From: a virus
Direction: 5' to 3' (one strand)
Length of the DNA: 64,000 bases
IMG/VR virus record: IMGVR_UViG_3300033075_000810
Under the pieces are notes generated by a model. The model did not search any database. It worked only from the letters and a program-made list of their open reading frames with translations, and was not told the origin of the DNA. Shown here in pieces: positions 58 to 52,327 of this stretch. The translations under genes were made by a program, and so were the position numbers. Within the stretch, counting starts at the first letter, position 1. Every line of letters starts with the position of its first letter.

Positions 58-1200
58 TTATTGGAACAGCCTGGCGTGCGAGTCAATCACCTCCTTCACT
101 GCACGGAGGGCGTTCAGGGCCTCGTCCTCGCGGACGACGCACTTGTCAAGATTGCCATAATGGCTTTCAAGACAGTTCAGCAGTAGCTCCTTGATCGCCG
201 TCTCGTCCGGCGAGTGCCTGAGGGTGGACTTGCTGTACACCTCGGTAAGATCGGCCTCACGCTGGGTGAACCAGTCCCTCAGTTGCTGGAGCGTCCAGTT
301 GCCCCGGCGGATGTCCTTCAGCATCTCCTTGTGACGCTGGAGGTCGATGTCGCCCTCCACCATAATCTGCTCGGCCTCCATGACGAGCCTCACGACGTGG
401 TAGCCGAACTTCCAGTCGGCACCGTGGACCTTGACGCCCCCGAACCGCTTCGTCTTGGCGAAGCCGTCGAGGAACATCTGGTGGTAGGTCTTCAGCTTGT
501 CATCGGGCATGTGGTACAGCGGGCCGGCGGTGGCGATCCCCCTGGGGAGCATCGCCTTCCTGGCACGGTCGCGGCTCTCGATCTCCTTCTCCACGTCCTC
601 CAGGGTCGTCTTGCGGTCGATCCCGTTATCGGCCTCAAAAGCCCAGATGCCCTGGTACTCCTCGGCGTTGGGCTTCACGTCCATCTTGTGTAGCTGGCTG
701 TAGGCATAGCCCCGGAAGGTGTGCCAGGCCCCCTTGTGCAGGAACAGCCGACGCCTCTCGCGGACGAGGGTGGCGACCTGCGTGGCGTGCAGCACGCAGT
801 TGGTCGGCGTGAAGAGACTGTCGATCATATTCGGATTGTTCTCCATCACCAGATGGAAGTACCGAACGATGTTGTAGACGGAGAAGTCGTACTCCCGCCC
901 TTTCCCGGCCATCGCCGTCTCGTCCTTGATATGGTGCTGCTGCCACTGGTCGAACCGCTTGGTCTGGCGTCCAAACCCTGGGATTTCGCCGGCGAGGTGG
1001 GGGAATACCACCGGCTTGGACGGGATACAGAAGCCATACACGTCCATGTCGGATGTGTCGCTCGACACGCCATAAGCAGTACTTCCCATGATGGTCAGGT
1101 AGTGGCAGTTGGAGGGCAGCCAGTCCGGCGGGTGGATCAGCTTCCTCTTCTTCAGGTCTTCCAGCAGCATTGCGGACCTCCTTGGGCGTATATCTGACAC
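58..1200 (-). CDS. predicted nucleotidyltransferase (PF10127/RlaP-like, Pol-beta superfamily)
   Basis: N-terminal motif IMGSTAYGVSSDTSDMDVYGFCIP matches the GSxxYG...SDxD signature of the predicted-nucleotidyltransferase family; ORF reaches the window edge. Confidence 0.6.
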   Translation of the reverse strand: MSDIRPRRSAMLLEDLKKRKLIHPPDWLPSNCHYLTIMGSTAYGVSSDTSDMDVYGFCIPSKPVVFPHLAGEIPGFGRQTKRFDQWQQHHIKDETAMAGKGREYDFSVYNIVRYFHLVMENNPNMIDSLFTPTNCVLHATQVATLVRERRRLFLHKGAWHTFRGYAYSQLHKMDVKPNAEEYQGIWAFEADNGIDRKTTLEDVEKEIESRDRARKAMLPRGIATAGPLYHMPDDKLKTYHQMFLDGFAKTKRFGGVKVHGADWKFGYHVVRLVMEAEQIMVEGDIDLQRHKEMLKDIRRGNWTLQQLRDWFTQREADLTEVYSKSTLRHSPDETAIKELLLNCLESHYGNLDKCVVREDEALNALRAVKEVIDSHARLFQ

Positions 1201-3174: not shown

Positions 3175-3718
3175 GGCTCAGTTCACGCCACTCGCAGGCG
3201 ACCGGGATGTCGTTCCGCTCGCAGAAGCGGGCGAACTTCACGTCCTCGCTCGACAGCCGCAGCAGACGCTTGCTGTTCTCGGGGTCTTCCAGCAGCGTCC
3301 TCAGGGCGATGCGGGCCATATCGCTGTCCTCAGCGATGGTCTTGATCTGCTCGTTGGTCAACTTATCCTCCGGTTTCTCGGTCTGGTCGGGCGTCAGCAG
3401 GATCGGTTTCCAGTCCCAGCAGTCGTAGTACACCAGATACAACACCAGTTTGCGTGGCTGCTGCCACACCCGGACCCTCATCTCGCTGATCGACTTGTTC
3501 GGCCTTTCGCAGGGCATGTCATACCAGTCGTTGATCTTCTGGGTCAGCGGGTCGTCCACGACAGGGTGGTCGTAGACGGGGAGTGGTCTGCCGTTCCAGA
3601 CCTCAAAACGCCTAGGCAGAGACTCCAGCTTGTCCACATGCAACGTGCCGTGGCCGTGGTTGACCTCGTCCCAGGAGTTAGTCCTAAGCCAACACTCGAT
3701 CCAGCAGTTCTTGATCAT
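3143..3718 (-). CDS. hypothetical protein
   Basis: 191-aa ORF with good coding composition; no recognisable domain. Confidence 0.5.
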   Translation of the reverse strand: MIKNCWIECWLRTNSWDEVNHGHGTLHVDKLESLPRRFEVWNGRPLPVYDHPVVDDPLTQKINDWYDMPCERPNKSISEMRVRVWQQPRKLVLYLVYYDCWDWKPILLTPDQTEKPEDKLTNEQIKTIAEDSDMARIALRTLLEDPENSKRLLRLSSEDVKFARFCERNDIPVACEWRELSRAEVVNARNN

Positions 3719-3745
3719 GCCATGAAAGAGTGAGCCTCGGCAAAA

Positions 3746-4855
3746 TCACAAGCAGTACTGCTCTGGAGACAGAACAGACGCCTGTGTCCGCTGCTTGTGA
3801 GCGATCAGAGCCTGCTCTGCTCTATCCCTTGTCTTATAGTTGCCCACGTTGTACTTGACGCCTTTGTGCTTATACATGGCCTTCCAGAGGCGACACCTCT
3901 TGTCCCAATACACACCCCTGATACCGGAGGTGTTGTTCAATGCTAGGGTGGCCCCCAATTCCTTTCTTAGGAAAGAGGAGATAGTGGACCTGCCGCGTTT
4001 GACCTTCTTGGCGATGCAGCCTATATCACACCCTCTGTTATGCTCTGTCAGGATCGCCTCTTTTTCGGCCTCCGACAGCACGCTTTGCCCAGGCAGGCGG
4101 TAAGCCACCTTGTGTCGAAAGCAATCCCACAGCATGTATGGCTTTACTAGAGCCAGAAGCGTCTCCCATGAGCGGGACCGCACGCACAGCTTATGATTCC
4201 CGTTCTTGACATGACGAGGATACGCCTCGATGCCGAACCGAACCACGACACTGGCGAGGAACTCCACGTCATCTAAAGAGAAGCCCTCAGTGTGGAAGCT
4301 GGCCGTTCTGCCTTTTAGGCTGTTGGTCCCGTCGTCAAAATACCACACAGCCAGAGCCAGTGAGTCCAACTCAAGGTCGCGTGGAACCACCTTGACGCCT
4401 TCAGGATACCACTTCGCTCTCAGTTCGGTCAGCCTAGGGTTAGCAGGGACACGCACGGCAAATCCAGCGTGAACCTTCTCGCCTAGCCTAGTCTTTCTAG
4501 CTGTTATGGTTGAACCTGGGAACTCTTGCTGATGCCAAAGCAGGTAGTCATGGTGAGCGGCACACTGCCCTTTTGCCAAAGCCGACTGTCCGTATTTGGG
4601 CTTGGTCAGATACCCATCACCCAGAAGTGACCCGATGATGATGGAGTGTTGTCGCGGGGTGAATCTCTCCGCAGCCTCCCTGCTGGCTGCGAAGGCTTGT
4701 AAACTCTCTTTGGAGATCCAGCTTTCGTGGTAACTGACCCTTTTTGCGGCCAAGTCGCCTTTCTCGATCAGCCTGTACACCGTCTGTCTGCTGATACCTA
4801 AAAAGGATGATGCTTGCGGCAGCCGCACGAACCCATCTGGTGGTGTTGTAGCCAT
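3746..4855 (-). CDS. LAGLIDADG homing endonuclease with N-terminal HTH and C-terminal AP2 DNA-binding domain
   Basis: GSLLGDGYL LAGLIDADG motif; N-terminal excisionase/MerR-like HTH (LGISRQTVYRLIEKGDL); C-terminal SGIRGVYWDKRCRLWKA...YNVGNYKTRDRAEQA matches the AP2 domain; AGGAG-like RBS upstream. Confidence 0.7.
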   Translation of the reverse strand: MATTPPDGFVRLPQASSFLGISRQTVYRLIEKGDLAAKRVSYHESWISKESLQAFAASREAAERFTPRQHSIIIGSLLGDGYLTKPKYGQSALAKGQCAAHHDYLLWHQQEFPGSTITARKTRLGEKVHAGFAVRVPANPRLTELRAKWYPEGVKVVPRDLELDSLALAVWYFDDGTNSLKGRTASFHTEGFSLDDVEFLASVVVRFGIEAYPRHVKNGNHKLCVRSRSWETLLALVKPYMLWDCFRHKVAYRLPGQSVLSEAEKEAILTEHNRGCDIGCIAKKVKRGRSTISSFLRKELGATLALNNTSGIRGVYWDKRCRLWKAMYKHKGVKYNVGNYKTRDRAEQALIAHKQRTQASVLSPEQYCL

Positions 4856-4926: not shown

Positions 4927-5643
4927 CTACTGCATGTCGTGGTCAAGTTCCACGTTCCAGTACGCCACCCCCAGGAATGCCTCCCAACTCTTCACCCGGT
5001 ACTCCCCCCTGAATAGCTGGAACTTGGGCCTGAACGGCTTCCTGCGGAGCTTCATGCCGGCCTGCTCTGGCGTCCTGTCCGCCTTGAAGCTGTTACACTT
5101 CACGCAGGCCAGGGCACAATTCTCCCAGGTGGTCTGACCGCCCTGGGCACGCGGCACGACGTGGTCGATGGTCAGTTCCTCGGTGCCTGGCCGGCCACCG
5201 CAGTACTGGCACTGGTTGGCGTCACGCCGGTAGATCGTCCGCCGGCTGAAACTGAGCTTCTGCTGCGGCAGCTTGTTGTACCGCGTCAGGAGGATGATCT
5301 CAGGCACGCGGAATGCCTTACTCACACCCCGGATGGCCGGCTCGCCGTCCTTAGGACGCATTGCCGACCAGTCGGCCCAGGAGTAGTTCTGGTAGTCCGT
5401 CACGTCGAGGACTTTGGCCTTGGGCTGGCCGTCCGCGTAGTTGGAACAGAGCAGGCCCATCGCCCGCTCGATGTCGATCACCTTGATCGGGGTCCAACTC
5501 TTGTTCAGGACTAACACCTTCCGCTTCGCTACTGCTGACATCTCATCCTCCTCGATTGCATCTAGGTCACTGGTATGTACCTCCCCGTTAGGCGAGTTGC
5601 TGTTAGGACACCGCGTCCCAGGCCGGGTTCGCTTGACGGGCAA
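4927..5643 (-). CDS. HNH homing endonuclease
   Basis: CQYCGG...LTIDHVVPRAQGG...WENCALACVKCNSFK is a classic HNH motif. Confidence 0.75.
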   Translation of the reverse strand: MPVKRTRPGTRCPNSNSPNGEVHTSDLDAIEEDEMSAVAKRKVLVLNKSWTPIKVIDIERAMGLLCSNYADGQPKAKVLDVTDYQNYSWADWSAMRPKDGEPAIRGVSKAFRVPEIILLTRYNKLPQQKLSFSRRTIYRRDANQCQYCGGRPGTEELTIDHVVPRAQGGQTTWENCALACVKCNSFKADRTPEQAGMKLRRKPFRPKFQLFRGEYRVKSWEAFLGVAYWNVELDHDMQ

Positions 5644-24672: not shown

Positions 24673-25172
24673 CAGTCCGAGTTCTCCCAGGTCAGGATAG
24701 CCGGCTCCCCGTTGATGTTGACATGCAGCCAGGCTTCCTCGTTGGAGTAGCAGCGGTCAACCTTCCACGGCAGGCCGGCCTCCCTGAAGGCACGGTCGCA
24801 CTGGTCTAGCTCGCCGTCGTCGGCGTAGCAGCAGTCGTAGAGGGCACGCTTGACGCCCTCGGGGATCGGGTAGATGACGAAGCGGCCCTGGGCCTTGGGG
24901 TGGTTGCAGGAGACGCCGCCCGTCTGGTTGGTATACCAGCCGCCGTTGTTGTCGAGATAGATCACGCCCTCATGGTCGAACAGGCAGGCCGCGTCCTCCT
25001 CGGTGGGACCGCCCTGGACGGGCTTCTCGGGTAACGCCGCGACGGCGTTCAGGGTCGAGACGATCTCCCCGATGAGGTCCATGTCCGTGTCAGGGCAGAA
25101 GTCCGCGATGACGACGCCCTTGTGTAGGAGGCGGCTGTGGTGGTAGTCCGTCTCGACCGTGAACTCGTTCAT
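24672..25172 (-). CDS. hypothetical protein
   Basis: 166-aa ORF. Confidence 0.45.
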   Translation of the reverse strand: MNEFTVETDYHHSRLLHKGVVIADFCPDTDMDLIGEIVSTLNAVAALPEKPVQGGPTEEDAACLFDHEGVIYLDNNGGWYTNQTGGVSCNHPKAQGRFVIYPIPEGVKRALYDCCYADDGELDQCDRAFREAGLPWKVDRCYSNEEAWLHVNINGEPAILTWENSD

Positions 25173-25666
25173 TTCTTGCCCTCAGCGGCCTCGACCCAGA
25201 ACTTCCTGCTCATGTCGATATTGGGGAACTTCAGAAGAGTCTGGCAGAAGGTGGCCGCGAGATCCCTGTGCCCAAGCTCCCTCAGACTGGCGATGACGCG
25301 GGTCATCCTGAGCCAGTTGTGGTTGAACCCGCCCATGACGGCGGGCGTCCCCTCGTAAATGATAGACTTGCCCCTGAGGCGGAAGTCCCAGAAGAGCAGG
25401 ATGCGGCGGAACGCCTCGACCACTCGGTCCCTAAGGACGGGGTCCGCAAACATGACCTCGGCCTCGTACTCGGTCAGGGTCGGGGCGTCGTGGAACATGC
25501 TCGGCTTGACGGTCGGGAAGAGCCACTGGATGTACTCATGGTGGCCCTCCAGTTCGTGGTCCGTCATCGCCAGGACGGAACTGTAGGTGTGGCCGTCAGG
25601 GGTGGGTGTGATGTCCCTGTAGAAGTCTAGGATGGGTGTGCGGGCCGGCGGGTTCGCGGTGGTCAT
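25169..25666 (-). CDS. opioid-growth-factor-receptor (OGFr) N-terminal-domain-like protein
   Basis: ILDFYRD...HEYIQWLFPT...APTLTEYE resembles the OGFr conserved region (PF04664). Confidence 0.45.
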   Translation of the reverse strand: MTTANPPARTPILDFYRDITPTPDGHTYSSVLAMTDHELEGHHEYIQWLFPTVKPSMFHDAPTLTEYEAEVMFADPVLRDRVVEAFRRILLFWDFRLRGKSIIYEGTPAVMGGFNHNWLRMTRVIASLRELGHRDLAATFCQTLLKFPNIDMSRKFWVEAAEGKK

Positions 25667-34716: not shown

Positions 34717-34740
34717 AACCTCCTGCTGAGGTTATGTGAG

Positions 34741-34811
34741 TACCAGAGGTTGGAATCGAACCAACTTTTCATCCTTATGAGGGATGCGTCTTACCAATAG
34801 ACGACACTGGC
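34741..34811 (-). tRNA. tRNA with CAU anticodon (Met or Ile2)
   Basis: hand-folded: acceptor GCCAGUG/CUCUGGU (one mismatch), D-arm GUCU/AGAC, anticodon stem CAUCC/GGAUG with loop CUCAUAA, T-arm GUUGG-UUCGAUU-CCAAC. Confidence 0.5.
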
Positions 34812-39635: not shown

Positions 39636-40136
39636 TCAGGCCACCCAGTCCTTGGGCACGTCGCCCAGGCGGACGGGCCTGCCGTCCTGGGCCTGGGGCC
39701 GCTGCTGCGGCTTGCCGCCCCGGCGGTTGTTGTGGTGCTGGGGCTTGCCGCCCTTGTTGTGGGGCCGGCGTCCACGGTTGTCCGCGAACGTGCGACCGTC
39801 GCGGTTCTCCTGCTCTTTGGCCTTGGCCTTCTCGCGGGCCTCCTCTGCCTTCCGCTTGGCCTCCTGCCAGGCCCGGTACTCAGGGCAGGACTTGTCGAGC
39901 ATCTGATCAAATTGCTCATCCGTCAGCCCCTCGACCCGGCCCGTCATGGCACGGAACTTCTGCCGCTGCTCGCGGACGGCAGCCTCGCTCACCATGAGCT
40001 TCTGCTCGTCCTTGGTCCCCTTCGTCCTGAGGGCGATCAGTTCCGCCGTCTCCTTGCCGAACTCGTCCCAGACCAGGGACTTCTCCTCGTCAGTCGTGGC
40101 CGACGAGAACTTGGACGCCCACTCGTATGCCTTCAT
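39636..40136 (-). CDS. hypothetical protein with highly basic disordered C-terminal tail
   Basis: 166-aa ORF; RGRRPHNKGGKPQHHNNRRGGKPQQRPQ tail suggests nucleic-acid binding. Confidence 0.45.
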   Translation of the reverse strand: MKAYEWASKFSSATTDEEKSLVWDEFGKETAELIALRTKGTKDEQKLMVSEAAVREQRQKFRAMTGRVEGLTDEQFDQMLDKSCPEYRAWQEAKRKAEEAREKAKAKEQENRDGRTFADNRGRRPHNKGGKPQHHNNRRGGKPQQRPQAQDGRPVRLGDVPKDWVA

Positions 40137-40179
40137 GGATGGCTGCTCCTTAGGTGCTGATCAGATTGTAGGAGGGAAG

Positions 40180-40250
40180 TGCGGGATGCGGGAATCGAAC
40201 CCGCGTCTAAGCGTTGGGAACGCTCCATCCTACCATTGAACGAATCCCGC
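40180..40250 (-). tRNA. tRNA-Gly (CCC)
   Basis: GCGGGAU acceptor, anticodon loop UUCCCAA, T-arm GCGGG-UUCGAUU-CCCGC, 71 nt. Confidence 0.7.
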
Positions 40251-40259
40251 GAATGAGAG

Positions 40260-40331
40260 TGCGGCATGAGGGAATCGGACCCTACGACTGAAGTTTGGAA
40301 AACTTCCGTGATACCATTTCACCAATGCCGC
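40260..40331 (-). tRNA. tRNA-Gly (UCC)
   Basis: GCGGCAU acceptor, anticodon stem GAAGU/ACUUC with loop UUUCCAA, T-arm UAGGG-UCCGAUU-CCCUC. Confidence 0.7.
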
Positions 40332-40333
40332 AT

Positions 40334-40406
40334 GGTGCGTCTTGCCGGAATCGAACCGGCGATTTGTGCATGGCAAGCACACGCGATACCACTTCACCAA
40401 AGACGC
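40334..40406 (-). tRNA. tRNA-Gly (GCC), CCA encoded
   Basis: GCGUCUU acceptor, anticodon stem UGUGC/GCACA with loop UUGCCAU, T-arm GCCGG-UUCGAUU-CCGGC, 3' ACCA encoded. Confidence 0.7.
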
Positions 40407-40778
40407 AGTCTACCCCTAAGATAGTGTCCTGCCCCTCATTTTTCAAGGGCAGAAGCGAAATGGCCCCCGAGGGCGGGTAACCTCGGGGGCCGCAGGAAGG
40501 CAGATGGAGGGTCGCGTTCTTAGCTCTTCATGGCTCGTTCTCCGTGGGCCAAGGGGCCTGAATCTCAGTCGCCCCCGATGTCACCAGTAGTGCCGTCGCG
40601 GAAAGAGTCTGTCAGTCTAGTAGGGTTCGATGCAGGTCACATGGCTAACTCTCCGTGGTTGGGTGACTCCAGGGAGTGAGTACCACCGGCCTCCGGGGTG
40701 AGGGTTGACTATGACTTCTCACCCCATTGCTCGGTCGCCCCACGTCACGATGACAGTTTACCCAGGGCGACCGTTCTG
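40407..40778 (-). other. about 370-nt non-coding region with several strong hairpins between the Thg1-like gene and the tRNA-Gly array; candidate structured RNA or processing/regulatory region
   Basis: no credible ORF; perfect inverted repeats GCCCCCGAGG/CCUCGGGGGC (40463-40490) and GGGGUGAG/CUCACCCC (about 40698-40728). Confidence 0.35.
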
Positions 40779-41600
40779 TCAAGCAACCTTTTCCGCCAGA
40801 TTCGGCTCCTCACCGTAGAAGAAGACCCTGACACGGTTTGCGACCTGCGTGATGGGCGGCAGGTCCAGGGCGACCACGTCCGTCCGCTCCACCATCAGGT
40901 CCGGGTTGGTCCTGGCCTGGTGTTTGGGCGGCAGGTTGACCATCTCCTCGGTCGTGAACCGCCGGACGGTCTTCTTCCTCTGGAAGTAGGTGCCCCGCTT
41001 GAAGAACGCGGGGTAGTCGTTCCAGTTGATCCCCCGCTGCCAGAGCATCTCCTGCATCTGGCTGCCGTTCTTGTCCTGAAGCTCCTTGTGGCTGAAGTAG
41101 GCCCTCGCCGCCATCGAGATCGAGTTCTTGGTGGCGTCCAGTTCCCTCCAGACGAAGACGTTCGACGCCTCGTCCAGGGTAGGGCAGTTCCACACCCTGG
41201 CGTCGAAGGTCGGCATCTTCTCAACGTACTCGGGCAGTACCTGGGCGATGTGCCGGTTGAAGAACAGGGTCGCCAAGGCCGCGAGTTGGCTGGTCATCTT
41301 CTGGACCCGCCCGTCGAAGAAGATTTGCGTCCCCTCGTCAGCGGCGTACCACGCCAAACTGATTTCGTCGCTCTGCGTGTAGCCCACGCAGGCGTTAGTC
41401 TCGCGGACCAGATCCCTGGTCGTCTGCTGCATCACCTGGGACATCCGCTCGTCATAGGGGCGGTTCATGCCCTGGGTGAAGCGGCTGAAGGCACGCCCGT
41501 CGATGCGGGCACAGGCCGGTAGCCGGGGCATCAGGCGGCGTGCCGCCTCCATGCCCTCGTACAGTTTCATCCGGTCACCGAGTGCGTCGTTAGTAGCCAT
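40779..41600 (-). CDS. tRNA-His guanylyltransferase (Thg1)-like protein, 3'-5' nucleotide polymerase
   Basis: GDRMKLYE...ARIDGRAFSRFT...YTQSDEISL are the conserved Thg1/TLP motifs; start at internal ATG 41600 with AGGAG RBS. Confidence 0.8.
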   Translation of the reverse strand: MATNDALGDRMKLYEGMEAARRLMPRLPACARIDGRAFSRFTQGMNRPYDERMSQVMQQTTRDLVRETNACVGYTQSDEISLAWYAADEGTQIFFDGRVQKMTSQLAALATLFFNRHIAQVLPEYVEKMPTFDARVWNCPTLDEASNVFVWRELDATKNSISMAARAYFSHKELQDKNGSQMQEMLWQRGINWNDYPAFFKRGTYFQRKKTVRRFTTEEMVNLPPKHQARTNPDLMVERTDVVALDLPPITQVANRVRVFFYGEEPNLAEKVA

Positions 41601-42081
41601 CGCAATCGTCTCGTTTCTCCTCTGGGAGGACGAAGTCCCCCACGCTCTTTCTCTCGTACTTGGTCGCCTGGTCCCTAAGGAGTTTCTTCCCGTACCTTGT
41701 GAGTATCCCACGCTTAGGGTCGTAGTCGGGATCGATCACAGGTTCCTTCATGTCCGCAGGGACATAAGGGCAGCAGATGATACCCTTGCCCATAAGGGTT
41801 GGATACCTCAGATCGTACCCGGCCTCGTCCAACTGTCGCTCGGCCTCAAACCAGAACTCGTCCGAGCGACCGTGCGGACGACCGGCGTCCTCCCAGAGCT
41901 TGTAGGCGACCAACTCGGTCAACTTCCGGGTGGACGTGATCAGGTTGGGGAACACAATCTTGTCGCGTTCCTCGGGCGGCGTCTTGTCCTCGTAGATCCT
42001 CCACTCCCCGATGGGGCTGCGGATCGTCTCGGTGTGTTGGATTCCGCTCATGTTGGACACCTTTCTGGTCGGGAGGTTCAC
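41590..42081 (-). CDS. DUF2934-domain protein
   Basis: AYKLWEDAGRPHGRSDEFWFEAERQL. Confidence 0.5.
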   Translation of the reverse strand: MNLPTRKVSNMSGIQHTETIRSPIGEWRIYEDKTPPEERDKIVFPNLITSTRKLTELVAYKLWEDAGRPHGRSDEFWFEAERQLDEAGYDLRYPTLMGKGIICCPYVPADMKEPVIDPDYDPKRGILTRYGKKLLRDQATKYERKSVGDFVLPEEKRDDCDGY

Positions 42082-42968
42082 GGCTTGTAGTAGTCCAGTG
42101 CCCGGTCCACCATCTCCGGGTTCTCCCGGTAGTACTGGACCGTCTTCCGCAGGCCCTCCTCCCAGGAGGTGAGGTGGCCGAACAGGCTCCGCAGCAGCGA
42201 GGTGTCCGCCACCGCCTCCGACTTGCCCGTCTCGCCGGGACGCATCGGCATCTTCACCAGGCCCCCGGTGCTGCCGGTCAAGCGGATCACGTCCTCGGCC
42301 ACCTGGCGAACCGGGATCGGTTCGCCGGTGCCCAGGTCACACTGGACCGTCAGCCCGTCCTCGGTGGCGTCGATGATGACGCGGGCCATATCATCGACGT
42401 ACATCATGTCCACTACCTGATCGCCGTTGCCGAAGATGGTGATCGGCTTGTTCCTGAGGCCCAGGGCGACGAACACCGGCAGCATCTTCCTCACCGGGTG
42501 AATTGACTGGCCTGGTCCGTAGGAACTGTAGCACCTCAGGCAGGTCACCTTGACCGGGTGGTGTTCGTTGTAGACGCGGATTAGGTCGTCGTTGACCGTC
42601 TTGGTGATGGTGTACACGTCGGGCCAGACCTTGGGCTTGCTGGCGTAGAAGACGTGCGGCGTCTCCATCCTGATGCAGGACTCGATCACCCGGCAGGTGT
42701 TCAGGACGTTCTCCCTCACCGCCGCCGCGATGTTGTTCCTCAGTTCTGAGGTGCCCAGCATACCGTTCATCAGGTAGACGGCGTCGTGGCCCTCGATCAG
42801 CTTGTCCAACTCGCTGTCGGGGTAGGTACTGATGTCGAATAGCTCGGACAGGTTTGAGGAGGCGACCCTCTTGTCCACGACCTTGACCTGGCGACCGATA
42901 TCCCTCAGACGCCGGGCGATAGCACCGCCCATGAAGCCGTGACCACCAATGACCAAAGCCTTCTGCAT
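42078..42968 (-). CDS. NAD-dependent epimerase/dehydratase (extended SDR)
   Basis: ALVIGGHGFMGGAI Rossmann motif, YxxxK-type core (YTITK), start at internal MQKALV with AGGAGAG RBS. Confidence 0.7.
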   Translation of the reverse strand: MQKALVIGGHGFMGGAIARRLRDIGRQVKVVDKRVASSNLSELFDISTYPDSELDKLIEGHDAVYLMNGMLGTSELRNNIAAAVRENVLNTCRVIESCIRMETPHVFYASKPKVWPDVYTITKTVNDDLIRVYNEHHPVKVTCLRCYSSYGPGQSIHPVRKMLPVFVALGLRNKPITIFGNGDQVVDMMYVDDMARVIIDATEDGLTVQCDLGTGEPIPVRQVAEDVIRLTGSTGGLVKMPMRPGETGKSEAVADTSLLRSLFGHLTSWEEGLRKTVQYYRENPEMVDRALDYYKP

Positions 42969-43002
42969 GAGTACTCTCCTAGGTTGCCCTAGAGGAGAGT
43001 AT

Positions 43003-43647
43003 ATGCTCAAGTCCCTGCCGCGTGCCGTGGGAGTCAACGGGAAGCTCATCAAACCCTGGGCCAGCGACCCGATCTACAAGGTCGCCGGCGGCAGGACGGC
43101 CCTCAGCCCGGTCGCCCAGCACGTCCTGCTGCAATGGCTTTCCTACGCATTAGCGGCCCCTGGAGCCGTCGCGGAGTTCGGGGTATGGAGGGGCGGCTCG
43201 GCGGCTCTGATCGCGTCCAAGACGCGGCTAGAGGCCCCTGAGAGGCGGATTCACCTGTTCGACACCTTTGAGGGCATCCCCTCACATACCTCCAAAGACA
43301 ACTACTACCGGGCCGGCGACTGGAAAGATACCAGCCTAGGGGACGTGAGTGCCTTCCTGGCCGAGTACGGTGCCGTCTTCCACCCCGGCGATATCTCCGT
43401 CACCGTCAACACCCTGTCGGGGCCTCTGGCGTTCGTCCACGTCGATTGCGATATGTACGAGCCGGTCAAAGCTGTGACCGAACACGTCTATCCCATCCTC
43501 TCCAAGGGAGGTGTAATCGTCTACGACGACTACGGGTGGATGGACTGTGCCGGGGCCAAGCTCGCCGTAGACGAATACTACGCCGGCTGGCCCGACAAGC
43601 CGATCTACCTGGGCGGGACCAGCCAGGCCGTTGTCGTCAAGCGTTGA
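43003..43647 (+). CDS. TylF/MycF-family SAM-dependent O-methyltransferase
   Basis: GAVAEFGVWRGGSA...HLFDTFEG...HVDCDMYEP...LSKGGVIVYDDYGW matches macrocin-O-methyltransferase family motifs; divergent from the epimerase gene with starts only about 35 bp apart. Confidence 0.7.
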   Translation: MLKSLPRAVGVNGKLIKPWASDPIYKVAGGRTALSPVAQHVLLQWLSYALAAPGAVAEFGVWRGGSAALIASKTRLEAPERRIHLFDTFEGIPSHTSKDNYYRAGDWKDTSLGDVSAFLAEYGAVFHPGDISVTVNTLSGPLAFVHVDCDMYEPVKAVTEHVYPILSKGGVIVYDDYGWMDCAGAKLAVDEYYAGWPDKPIYLGGTSQAVVVKR

Positions 43648-51575: not shown

Positions 51576-51673
51576 GTTGTCGCTCCAGTTCGCTGTTGGT
51601 TAGGATGGTTGCCGGACGTAAGGCAACAGTTTTACCCCGAGCATTCAATTTGTCAACCCGAGAAGGAGAGCCT

Positions 51674-52327
51674 GTGGAGAGCAAAATCATCGTGGCCCTG
51701 GATGGCATGGACTGGGAGGTCGCCCGCCGCCTGGCACGATCCCTGAGGGACGAGGTCTGGGGCTTCAAGGTCAACGACGCCCTCATCGACAAGGGCCTCG
51801 ACTGCGTCCACGAACTCAAGAACCTGGGCGTCAACGTGTTCGCGGACCCGAAGCTGCACGACATCCCCAACACGGTTGGCAACGCCGTCAAGAAGATCGT
51901 GAGGGCCGGGGCCGACATCATCACGGTCCACGCGATGGGTGGCTTTGACATGCTCAGGGCTGCCGTGGCCGAGGGCGGGCCACGCATCGCCGCTGTCAGC
52001 CTCCTGACCAGCATGGGCGACGACGACTGCATCGAGGTGTTCGGCGGCTTCCGCCGGAACATTCTGCCCGACCTGCTGAAGATGCCCGAGCGGGCCGGCG
52101 TGAGCAAACTGATTTGCGGCGTGCCCGACCTCGATCTGGTCGGCATCCGCTTCTTCACCATCGTGCCCGGCATCAGGGTCGAGCAGACGGTGGACGACGA
52201 CCAGAAGAACCGGGGCATCCCCAAGAACGGCACCTACGGACTGACCGTGGTCGGCAGGCCCATCACCAAGGCCCCGGACCCCGTCGCCGCCGCCAAGCTC
52301 TACAACCAGATCCTCAACGACGCCTGA
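51674..52327 (+). CDS. pyrF: orotidine-5'-phosphate decarboxylase
   Basis: IVALDGMD...FKVN...DPKLHDIPNTV...ITVHA...LLTSM...IVPGIR...VVGRPIT match PyrF signatures (DLKFHDIPNT, VHA, LTSM, VTPGIR, VIGRPVT); GTG start 51674 with GAAGGAGAG RBS. Confidence 0.85.
   Translation: MESKIIVALDGMDWEVARRLARSLRDEVWGFKVNDALIDKGLDCVHELKNLGVNVFADPKLHDIPNTVGNAVKKIVRAGADIITVHAMGGFDMLRAAVAEGGPRIAAVSLLTSMGDDDCIEVFGGFRRNILPDLLKMPERAGVSKLICGVPDLDLVGIRFFTIVPGIRVEQTVDDDQKNRGIPKNGTYGLTVVGRPITKAPDPVAAAKLYNQILNDA

Follow-up and report, generated by a model that had tools for sequence, protein, structure and literature searches.

A predicted bacterial-type Thg1-like protein encoded upstream of three tRNA-Gly genes in a probable large phage

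Introduction

Why would a virus carry the gene for a Thg1-like protein (TLP) directly upstream of a set of tRNA-Gly genes, and are these tRNAs the substrates of the enzyme? The question is raised by the IMG/VR virus record IMGVR_UViG_3300033075_000810, of which a stretch of 64,000 nucleotides (nt), here called the window, was analysed. Its dispersed tRNA genes, its homing endonucleases, its mostly orphan genes on one strand and the occurrence of TLP relatives in huge phages indicate that the genome is probably that of a large phage. TLPs are template-dependent 3'-5' RNA polymerases. Having activated the 5' end of a tRNA with ATP or GTP, or starting from a 5' triphosphate, they add nucleotides complementary to the 3' acceptor strand.

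With modest confidence we favour the reading that the protein would be a general tRNA 5'-end maintenance enzyme, also able to restore G-1 on tRNA-His, in a translation-related accessory region of a probable huge phage, and that the tRNA-Gly genes would form an independent supply set. The family, the fold, the catalytic residues, the tRNA identities and the local gene order kept in close relatives were observed directly. Enzymatic activity, substrates, timing and any counter-defence role are what we infer from them.

The Thg1-like protein

The open reading frame (ORF) of the TLP has a possible GTG start at 41711 and a likelier ATG start at 41600, which was chosen because the homologue alignments begin at residue 1-5 of that form. 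The end of an upstream ORF containing a DUF2934 domain overlaps this ATG by 11 nt.

40779-41600, minus strand: Thg1-like protein gene, 273 amino acids plus stop codon (stop at 40779), matching Pfam Thg1 and PHROG 4717

The original prediction had recognised a Thg1-like protein from the motifs GDRMKLYE, ARIDGRAFSRFT and YTQSDEISL, all of which are present in the translation of 41600-40779, and profile searches agree with it. The Pfam family Thg1 (PF04446) matches with 104.7 bits (cut-off 29.2 bits; E 4.5e-30) over profile positions 2-130 of 130, and PHROG 4717, annotated as 'tRNA-His guanylyltransferase', matches at 4.3e-86. The Thg1C match stayed below its threshold (21.2 vs 26.3) and no NCBIfam model matched the protein. 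The closest solved structure by sequence is the TLP of Bacillus thuringiensis (BtTLP, PDB: 4KGK), at 1.9e-40 over residues 2-201, whereas the eukaryotic Thg1 sequences in the PDB match far more weakly (E 1e-7 to 1e-13, best 3.8e-13). An AlphaFold2 model, built from an input alignment of 36 sequences, has a mean predicted local distance difference test (pLDDT) of 92.6 and a predicted template modelling score (pTM) of 0.87. When this model was searched against the PDB, the top 32 matches were all Thg1 or TLP structures, the best being 4KGM with an E-value of 5e-22 and a template modelling (TM) score, normalised to the target, of 0.88-0.89.

All three catalytic carboxylates are present: D34, D78 and E79 align with D30, D75 and E76 of BtTLP and are invariant in alignments of 11 and of 36 homologues. 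In BtTLP these residues correspond to the conserved carboxylates D29, D76 and E77 of human hTHG1 (PMC3701042). Furthermore, E15, R32, S77, K101 and R135 are invariant across the 36 homologues. Four of them, E15, R32, S77 and R135, are the equivalents of the nucleotide- or triphosphate-binding residues E12, R28, S74 and R131 of BtTLP, and K101 corresponds to K95 of hTHG1. The motif DATKNSISM aligns with DASKNSISM of BtTLP, at a position where the Thg1 of Candida has DCHINNLYN. HINNLYN is a eukaryote-specific motif that reads the His anticodon, and all bacterial and archaeal TLPs tested favour the repair of 5'-truncated tRNAs and disregard the anticodon (PMC6471195). Judged by sequence and modelled fold, the protein is thus an intact bacterial-type TLP and not a bona fide Thg1. 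Family, fold and catalytic residues together predict that it would be catalytically competent.

BtTLP (4KGK/4KGM) is the best match in both sequence and fold, and the two proteins have in common the three carboxylates, the equivalents of E12, R28, S74 and R131 and the motif DA(S/T)KNSISM. They differ in that identity is about 42%, that K43 of BtTLP is an arginine in the phage protein and that the deposited BtTLP chain has 245 residues compared with 273; moreover, the window gene lies in a probable phage and adjoins tRNA genes. With the eukaryotic Thg1 of yeast, human and Candida the protein shares the superfamily, the fold and the two-metal active site, but HINNLYN is absent and the similarity is much weaker. 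In addition, the tRNA-His of the window has C73 and an encoded G-1, so the non-templated addition of G-1 opposite A73 does not apply here.

The tRNA-Gly array

Downstream of the TLP gene, three tRNA-Gly genes were annotated. The Rfam tRNA cut-off is 29 bits.

40333-40406, minus strand: tRNA-Gly(GCC), ARAGORN, Rfam 63.6 bits, A73, CCA encoded
40259-40331, minus strand: tRNA-Gly(UCC), ARAGORN, Rfam 56.0 bits, A73, CCA not encoded, beginning 1 nt past tRNA-Gly(GCC)
40179-40250, minus strand: tRNA-Gly(CCC), ARAGORN, Rfam 63.4 bits, A73, CCA not encoded

ARAGORN and Rfam thus find each of the three genes that had been proposed about 370 nt downstream on the same strand; the measured gap is 372 nt (40778-40407). 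All three fold as cloverleaves with an NCC anticodon and the pairs G1:C72, C2:G71 and G3:C70, and it was correctly recognised that their anticodons jointly read all GGN codons. Glycine makes up 7.2% of the 11,727 codons in the window, with GGC accounting for 60%, GGG for 19%, GGT for 14% and GGA for 7%. The other window tRNAs likewise fit favoured codons (GAG, CAC, AAC, ACC). The tRNA-Gly set and this match to favoured codons are consistent with ordinary codon supply.

The discriminator base is A73 in all three tRNA-Gly, as in their counterparts in the related loci L211 and L214, and not the usual bacterial U73. Among the tRNA-Gly of other phage loci with a TLP, 12 of 13 have U73. A non-bacterial host was considered and rejected as an explanation of A73, since A73 tRNA-Gly is known in bacterial genomes of several phyla; we found it in alphaproteobacterial, Opitutales and candidate-phylum metagenome-assembled genomes. 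The base may mirror the host and thereby give a clue to its identity.

Linkage of TLP and tRNA genes in related phages

The window contains eight tRNA clusters, and the estimated chance of a gene lying no more than 400 nt from a tRNA is about 13%, so the adjacency within the window alone is not significant. The order TLP, spacer, tRNA-Gly recurs, however, in the two closest relatives. In L211/L212 (72% identity) tRNA-Gly(GCC) and tRNA-Gly(UCC) lie 316 nt downstream of the TLP gene, and in L214 (77% identity) tRNA-Gly(GCC), (UCC) and (CCC) lie 274 nt downstream. Across the wider set, a tRNA lies no farther than 10 kb from the TLP gene in 24 of 87 related phage loci. The nearest tRNA is at most 300 nt away in seven distinct loci, where it is always on the same strand as the TLP gene and has the identity Met, Ala, Glu or Arg, not Gly. 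In L219, for instance, a tRNA-Met (610-681) lies 30 nt upstream. The proposed pairing of the TLP with its own tRNA-Gly set therefore survives as an adjacency in the two closest relatives, but the tie to glycine does not reach beyond this lineage, where other tRNAs or none are found.

All-against-all ORF clustering of 88 loci revealed no gene partner of the TLP conserved in more than 10 loci. The top neighbour clusters encode a deaminase, GIY-YIG and HNH endonucleases, TnpB, a uracil-DNA glycosylase (UDG), an HD-domain protein and RlaP. More distant homologues (P0004, P0005, P0008, P0010) show other neighbours, namely ribonucleotide reductase (RNR), a SpoU methylase, UvdE and DUF488. Genes for RNA repair or tRNA handling were detected repeatedly: seven related loci have homologues of RlaP-type nucleotidyltransferases no more than 10 kb from the TLP gene (in L077 one ends 670 nt upstream), a PTH2 peptidyl-tRNA hydrolase (16063-16452) lies beside the TLP homologue of L211, a SpoU-family RNA methyltransferase (3367-3906) lies directly downstream of the TLP gene in L217, and CcrColossus has a CCA-adding enzyme 6 kb from its TLP gene. 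The window itself encodes an RlaP-family protein.

58-1200, minus strand: RlaP-family 'RNA repair pathway' Pol-beta nucleotidyltransferase, 380 amino acids (Pfam 2e-16; PHROG 388 5e-46)

A scan of about 45 ORFs of the window detected neither an RNA ligase nor a kinase. Overall, TLP genes tend to lie in or beside islands of tRNA and nucleotide-metabolism genes, and the connection to glycine is lineage-specific.

Further features were seen around TLP genes. Two NAD-dependent sugar epimerases (22576-23418 and 42078-43052) and a TylF-type methyltransferase (42949-43647) flank the TLP region of the window, and the order of methyltransferase and TLP is preserved in L211. In L218, ARAGORN calls a candidate resembling a transfer-messenger RNA (3630-4024) beside the TLP homologue, overlapping the UvdE gene. 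The 379-kb IMG/VR phage contig L066 encodes an RNase P RNA of bacterial class A (1997-2295; Rfam: RF00010, 142 bits, cut-off 100) amid tRNA genes, about 8 kb upstream of the TLP gene of that phage. It would be a phage-borne ribozyme that processes tRNA 5' ends.

The spacer between the TLP gene and the tRNA array

Five features were annotated in the spacer, the promoter and terminator calls being matches to consensus sequences.

40755-40782, minus strand: promoter-like site P1, TTGACA-16-TAAACT, overlapping the TLP stop codon (10 of 12 positions agree with the scanned consensus)
40637-40654, minus strand: Shine-Dalgarno sequence GGAGAG, then the start-stop mini-ORF ATG TGA (40642-40637), read from the sequence
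40520-40543, minus strand: Shine-Dalgarno sequence GGAGA, the three-codon mini-ORF ATG AAG AGC TAA (M-K-S, 40531-40520), then CCTCCA
40462-40491, minus strand: terminator-like GC-rich hairpin of 11 bp with a T-rich tail (consensus scan)
40418-40446, minus strand: promoter-like site P2, TTGAAA-17-TATCTT, 11 nt before tRNA-Gly(GCC) (consensus scan)

The comparison of the spacer covers three homologues. The hexamers of P1 are kept in L211 (TTGACA..TACACT) and L214 (TTGACG..TAATCT), and both also keep the -10 element of P2, TAT(A/C)TT. L211 has a matching start-stop arrangement, GAGGAGGG..ATG TAA, as well as an identical ATGAAGAGCTAA with its Shine-Dalgarno sequence, in place of which L214 has a Shine-Dalgarno sequence and ATG AGT GCG TGA. 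A hairpin is found at the same position in both relatives, with a different sequence in each. Considered as a unit (40455-40782, minus strand), the motifs are found again in L211 and in part in L214, and the remaining spacer has diverged.

From these matches, transcription of the tRNA-Gly array seems to start at a promoter of its own, beyond the terminator-like hairpin. An obligatory operon is disfavoured by the predicted hairpin and promoter between TLP gene and array, and the interval between them may yield its own transcript of about 290 nt. By analogy, the unit 40455-40782 resembles phage minigenes or an attenuator.

A structured non-coding RNA was also considered for the spacer and found to be unsupported. 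Rfam at E <= 1 matched only tRNAs, the single-sequence fold has a z-score of -1.4, which is not an unusual stability, and RNAalifold on the three spacer sequences gave no covariation support beyond the hairpin. Pattern scans for further copies of the locus returned unrelated sequences: one IMG/VR match for the mini-ORF pattern, three IMG/VR matches for the tRNA-Gly(GCC) pattern, all of them tRNA-Thr, and, in a metagenome scan for spacer homologues, one tRNA island without a TLP gene.

tRNA-His and the ends of the acceptor stems

The tRNA-His gene in the window was inspected for G-1.

62831-62904, G-1 at 62905, minus strand: tRNA-His(GUG), ARAGORN, Rfam 54.3 bits

The encoded G-1 (62905) pairs with C73 (62832) in a bacterial 8-bp acceptor stem, and CCA is not encoded. 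A tRNA-His lacking an encoded G-1, for which a check had been proposed, is thus not what the window contains: post-transcriptional addition of G-1 is not required, though the TLP could restore it. By its sequence, this tRNA-His would be the most obvious substrate for templated G-1 addition, yet one that should not depend on the enzyme. Six nt upstream of it lies an 87-nt tRNA-like gene (62911-62998, minus strand) with the anticodon GUU and a long extra arm. ARAGORN calls it Asn, and its best Rfam match is tRNA-Sec with 40 bits, under the 47-bit cut-off.

It had also been claimed that several tRNAs of the window have acceptor ends of the U1:G72 type or mismatched ends. Instead, G1·U72 is found in three tRNAs called by ARAGORN, and a single mismatch occurs in a doubtful call.

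34740-34811: tRNA-Met(CAU), G1·U72, the only such call passing Rfam
61795-61867: tRNA-Arg(ACG), G1·U72, a weak call that fails Rfam
63799-63871: tRNA-Glu(CUC), G1·U72, a weak call that fails Rfam
60175-60248: doubtful tRNA call with the sole real mismatch at pairs 1-3, failing Rfam

Pairs 1-3 are fully Watson-Crick in 8 of the 13 ARAGORN tRNAs, and none of the nine that pass Rfam has a mismatch at these pairs. A U·G end in one tRNA-Trp proved to be an artefact of the ARAGORN register. Two distinct tRNA-Trp(CCA) genes lie 8 nt apart at 63389-63541 (minus strand), one of them weak (33.7 bits) with a reduced D arm.

Near TLP genes in general, G1·U72 is frequent. Among the distinct tRNAs within 10 kb it occurs in 44 of 185 (24%), compared with 55 of 584 (9.4%) in control phage tRNAs from 120 loci and 3 of 153 (2%) in tRNAs of cellular loci. 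The excess over control phages has a nominal Fisher p of 2e-6 and a per-locus Mann-Whitney p of 0.01, in counts that are not independent, the TLP loci being phylogenetically related. When the tRNAs are stratified by identity, the excess over the 584 control tRNAs is mostly gone: TLP-linked and control sets have G1·U72 in 15/21 vs 11/18 of tRNA-Glu, 7/16 vs 17/50 of tRNA-Leu and 2/7 vs 6/20 of tRNA-Val, and only tRNA-Arg clearly differs (10/18 vs 5/37). We therefore rejected G1·U72 as a signature of the TLP; it is a general property of certain phage tRNAs that carry A73. Among true mismatches at pairs 1-3, nearly all are of the initiator type, C1/U1.

The G1·U72 pair occurs chiefly in Glu, Leu, Arg, Ile and Val tRNAs that have A73 and U at -1 (loci L002-L089 and L225-L344). 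G·U at positions 2-7 ranges from 1 to 4% in the TLP-linked tRNAs, so that none of the other six acceptor pairs exceeds 4%, and reaches up to 11% (position 6) in control phage tRNAs. Hence the specificity for the terminal pair holds only for the TLP-linked set.

Distribution of phage TLPs

Megablast of 40100-41800 against GenBank phages gave zero matches at the DNA level, which means that there is no close sequenced relative among them. At the protein level, at least 164 GenBank phage records encode a TLP homologue. Jumbo phages form the majority, among them 201phi2-1 (59% identity), Viktualia, CcrColossus and GAP32. There are 46 Bacillus, 11 Mycobacterium, 13 Caulobacter and 7 Brevundimonas phage records with a homologue, and three uncultured phage assemblies of 485-635 kb carry one as well. 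Furthermore, at least 600 IMG/VR contigs encode a TLP relative. In a large protein collection, more than 7,000 sequences match at E <= 1e-10, among them chromosomal homologues in Nannocystis and Pseudomonas luteola with 61-64% identity.

Phage Thg1-like genes have been described before. A survey of 224 jumbo phages from 2021 lists Thg1 as a sporadic restorer of 5'-end nucleotides in phage RNA repair (PMC7824862), and a repair or tRNA-modifying role has been suggested for phage tRNA-His guanylyltransferases (PMC3601020, PMC7824862). A family review from 2019 does not mention phages and gives the natural substrates of bacterial TLPs as unknown (PMC6471195). The annotated phage tRNA-His guanylyltransferases, such as 201phi2-1 gp319, CcrColossus gp300 and Bc431v3 gp143, belong to the same PHROG 4717 family as the window protein, which is 59% identical to gp319 of Pseudomonas phage 201phi2-1 and 46% identical to gp300 of Caulobacter phage CcrColossus. 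They differ in their surroundings: the annotated record of CcrColossus has no tRNA within 20 kb of the TLP gene, and the direct order of TLP followed by tRNA-Gly(GCC, UCC, CCC) is specific to the lineage of the window. Such genes and a repair role are already described; what the window contributes is a single divergent member of the family, with a gene order particular to its lineage.

Other features of the window

Homing endonucleases of the LAGLIDADG and HNH types, an OGFr_N-domain protein and an orotidine 5'-monophosphate (OMP) decarboxylase are among the products of 3746-4855, 4927-5643, 25169-25666 and 51596-52327. An 873-amino-acid protein (15776-18397, minus strand) matches the Major Vault Protein shoulder (1.9e-25) and the vault repeat (8.6e-11) and has no PHROG match. 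Translation-related cargo on the minus strand includes a protein of 253 amino acids with a ribosomal L7/L12 C-terminal domain (59057-59818; 2.7e-11) and a methionine aminopeptidase (20315-21079; M24, 4.8e-51). AGG is the commonest Arg codon, with 22 per thousand in the coding regions of the window, which is unusually frequent for 62% GC. No tRNA-Arg(CCU) was found in the 64-kb window.

Discussion

In the favoured reading, the TLP would refill the 5'-truncated acceptor stems of phage or host tRNAs during infection, and it could restore G-1 opposite C73 on tRNA-His if processing or damage strips it. It would be expected to act on tRNAs generally, and not on tRNA-Gly in particular, because the eukaryotic anticodon-reading motif is absent. 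The downstream tRNA-Gly genes would be an ordinary phage tRNA supply set. With the array apparently on its own promoter, the adjacency would reflect the usual clustering of tRNA-handling genes with tRNA islands and not a pair of enzyme and substrate. The suggestion that the phage has a dedicated function of tRNA maturation or repair is upheld as far as the intact TLP and the real tRNAs are concerned; the absence of a tRNA-His without G-1, the lack of reliable mismatches and the apparently separate promoter speak against it. A counter-defence or repair purpose, already published for jumbo phages (PMC7824862), is plausible. Phage-encoded restoration of tRNAs facing host attack is the theme of T4 Pnkp/Rnl1 and of the RlaP/RtcB/Rnl sets of jumbo phages (PMC7824862), and the window (58-1200), like the seven related loci with such a gene near the TLP gene, encodes an RlaP-family protein. 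Those systems mend breaks in the anticodon loop by end-healing and ligation, whereas a TLP restores the 5' end through polymerisation on a template.

Several points weigh against general 5'-end maintenance. The calls that give the array its own promoter and a preceding terminator are consensus matches only. In 63 of the 87 related loci no tRNA was seen up to 10 kb from the TLP gene, and in 201phi2-1 the surrounding 5 kb lack one as well, so linkage to tRNAs is optional; moreover, the immediate neighbours of the TLP gene are not conserved past the closest relatives. We know of no host nuclease cutting at the 5' end that would create the need for repair, and the literature searched yielded no biochemical study of the activity or substrate of a phage TLP. 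Finally, the equivalent of BtTLP K43 is R47 in the window protein and an arginine in more than 90% of close homologues; K43 contacts or positions ATP and matters only for ATP-dependent activation (adenylylation) (PMC3701042).

A dedicated role in tRNA-His maturation, with the TLP adding G-1 to phage or host tRNA-His like eukaryotic Thg1, is in our view unlikely. The databases label the family 'tRNA-His guanylyltransferase', and the tRNA-His(GUG) of the window has C73, which serves as a template for G-1 addition by TLPs in vitro (PMC6471195); without an encoded CCA, it might be cut at +1 by the host RNase P and so need the enzyme. However, G-1 is encoded at 62905 where it pairs with C73, an arrangement in which bacterial RNase P keeps it (PMC6471195), the TLP lacks the HINNLYN motif for anticodon recognition, and the tRNA-His gene is 21 kb distant from the TLP gene. 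The phages of Caulobacter and Brevundimonas also argue against such a role. Both host genera probably belong to the alpha-proteobacteria without G-1. TLPs are nevertheless present in 13 and 7 of their phage records, and several alpha-proteobacterial groups manage without G-1 (PMC6471195). We consider it quite unlikely that the substrate is an RNA other than tRNA, for example the transcript of about 290 nt from the spacer, which the TLP would extend or cap, or that the TLP has no functional tie to the adjacent tRNAs, both merely sharing an accessory cargo region. Such an arrangement would fit the many related loci without nearby tRNAs, which are the majority, the variable neighbours rich in mobile endonucleases, TnpB, deaminase and UDG genes, and the conserved predicted transcription unit directly after the TLP gene. 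It fits less well with the distances, as, of the roughly 20 distinct loci with a tRNA within 10 kb, 7 have it no more than 300 nt away, far above a uniform spread, with the recurrence of RNA-repair and tRNA-handling genes near TLP genes, or with a spacer whose fold z-score is -1.4 and which lacks covariation-supported structure.

Editing of phage tRNAs, in which G1·U72 or mismatched ends would be removed and rebuilt by the TLP as Watson-Crick pairs (A1:U72), is very improbable. Its model is amoebozoan mitochondria, where DdiTLP3 of Dictyostelium carries out such editing (PMC6471195), and the likeness extends to a TLP in a genome with its own tRNA set and to the templated refilling of the 5' strand of the acceptor stem. 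The encoded mismatches at pairs 1-3 that define the amoebozoan system were not found in the reliable tRNAs of the window, and true mismatches at these pairs are almost all initiator-type C1/U1. The frequency of G1·U72 near TLP genes (24%, against 9.4% in control phages and 3 of 153 in cellular tRNAs) would favour editing, but the excess largely reflects tRNA identity and comes from related loci with non-independent counts. Besides, G1·U72 occurs in only one Rfam-supported tRNA of the window, G·U counts as a legitimate pair, and a nuclease that would remove the 5' end is not evident. We hold as similarly faint the prospect that TLP gene, spacer unit and A73 tRNA-Gly array form one lineage-specific module, in which ribosome occupancy of the mini-ORFs would set the read-through into the array, or the TLP would remodel the 5' ends of unusual tRNAs (G1·U72 or A73) as a phage form of 5' editing.

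General maintenance of tRNA 5' ends thus remains the role that we favour for the window protein. Biochemical work on a phage TLP does not seem to exist. A phage with a TLP gene beside tRNA genes is a reasonable system in which to ask what 3'-5' polymerases do outside eukaryotes, and it could also reveal whether hosts attack the 5' ends of tRNAs.

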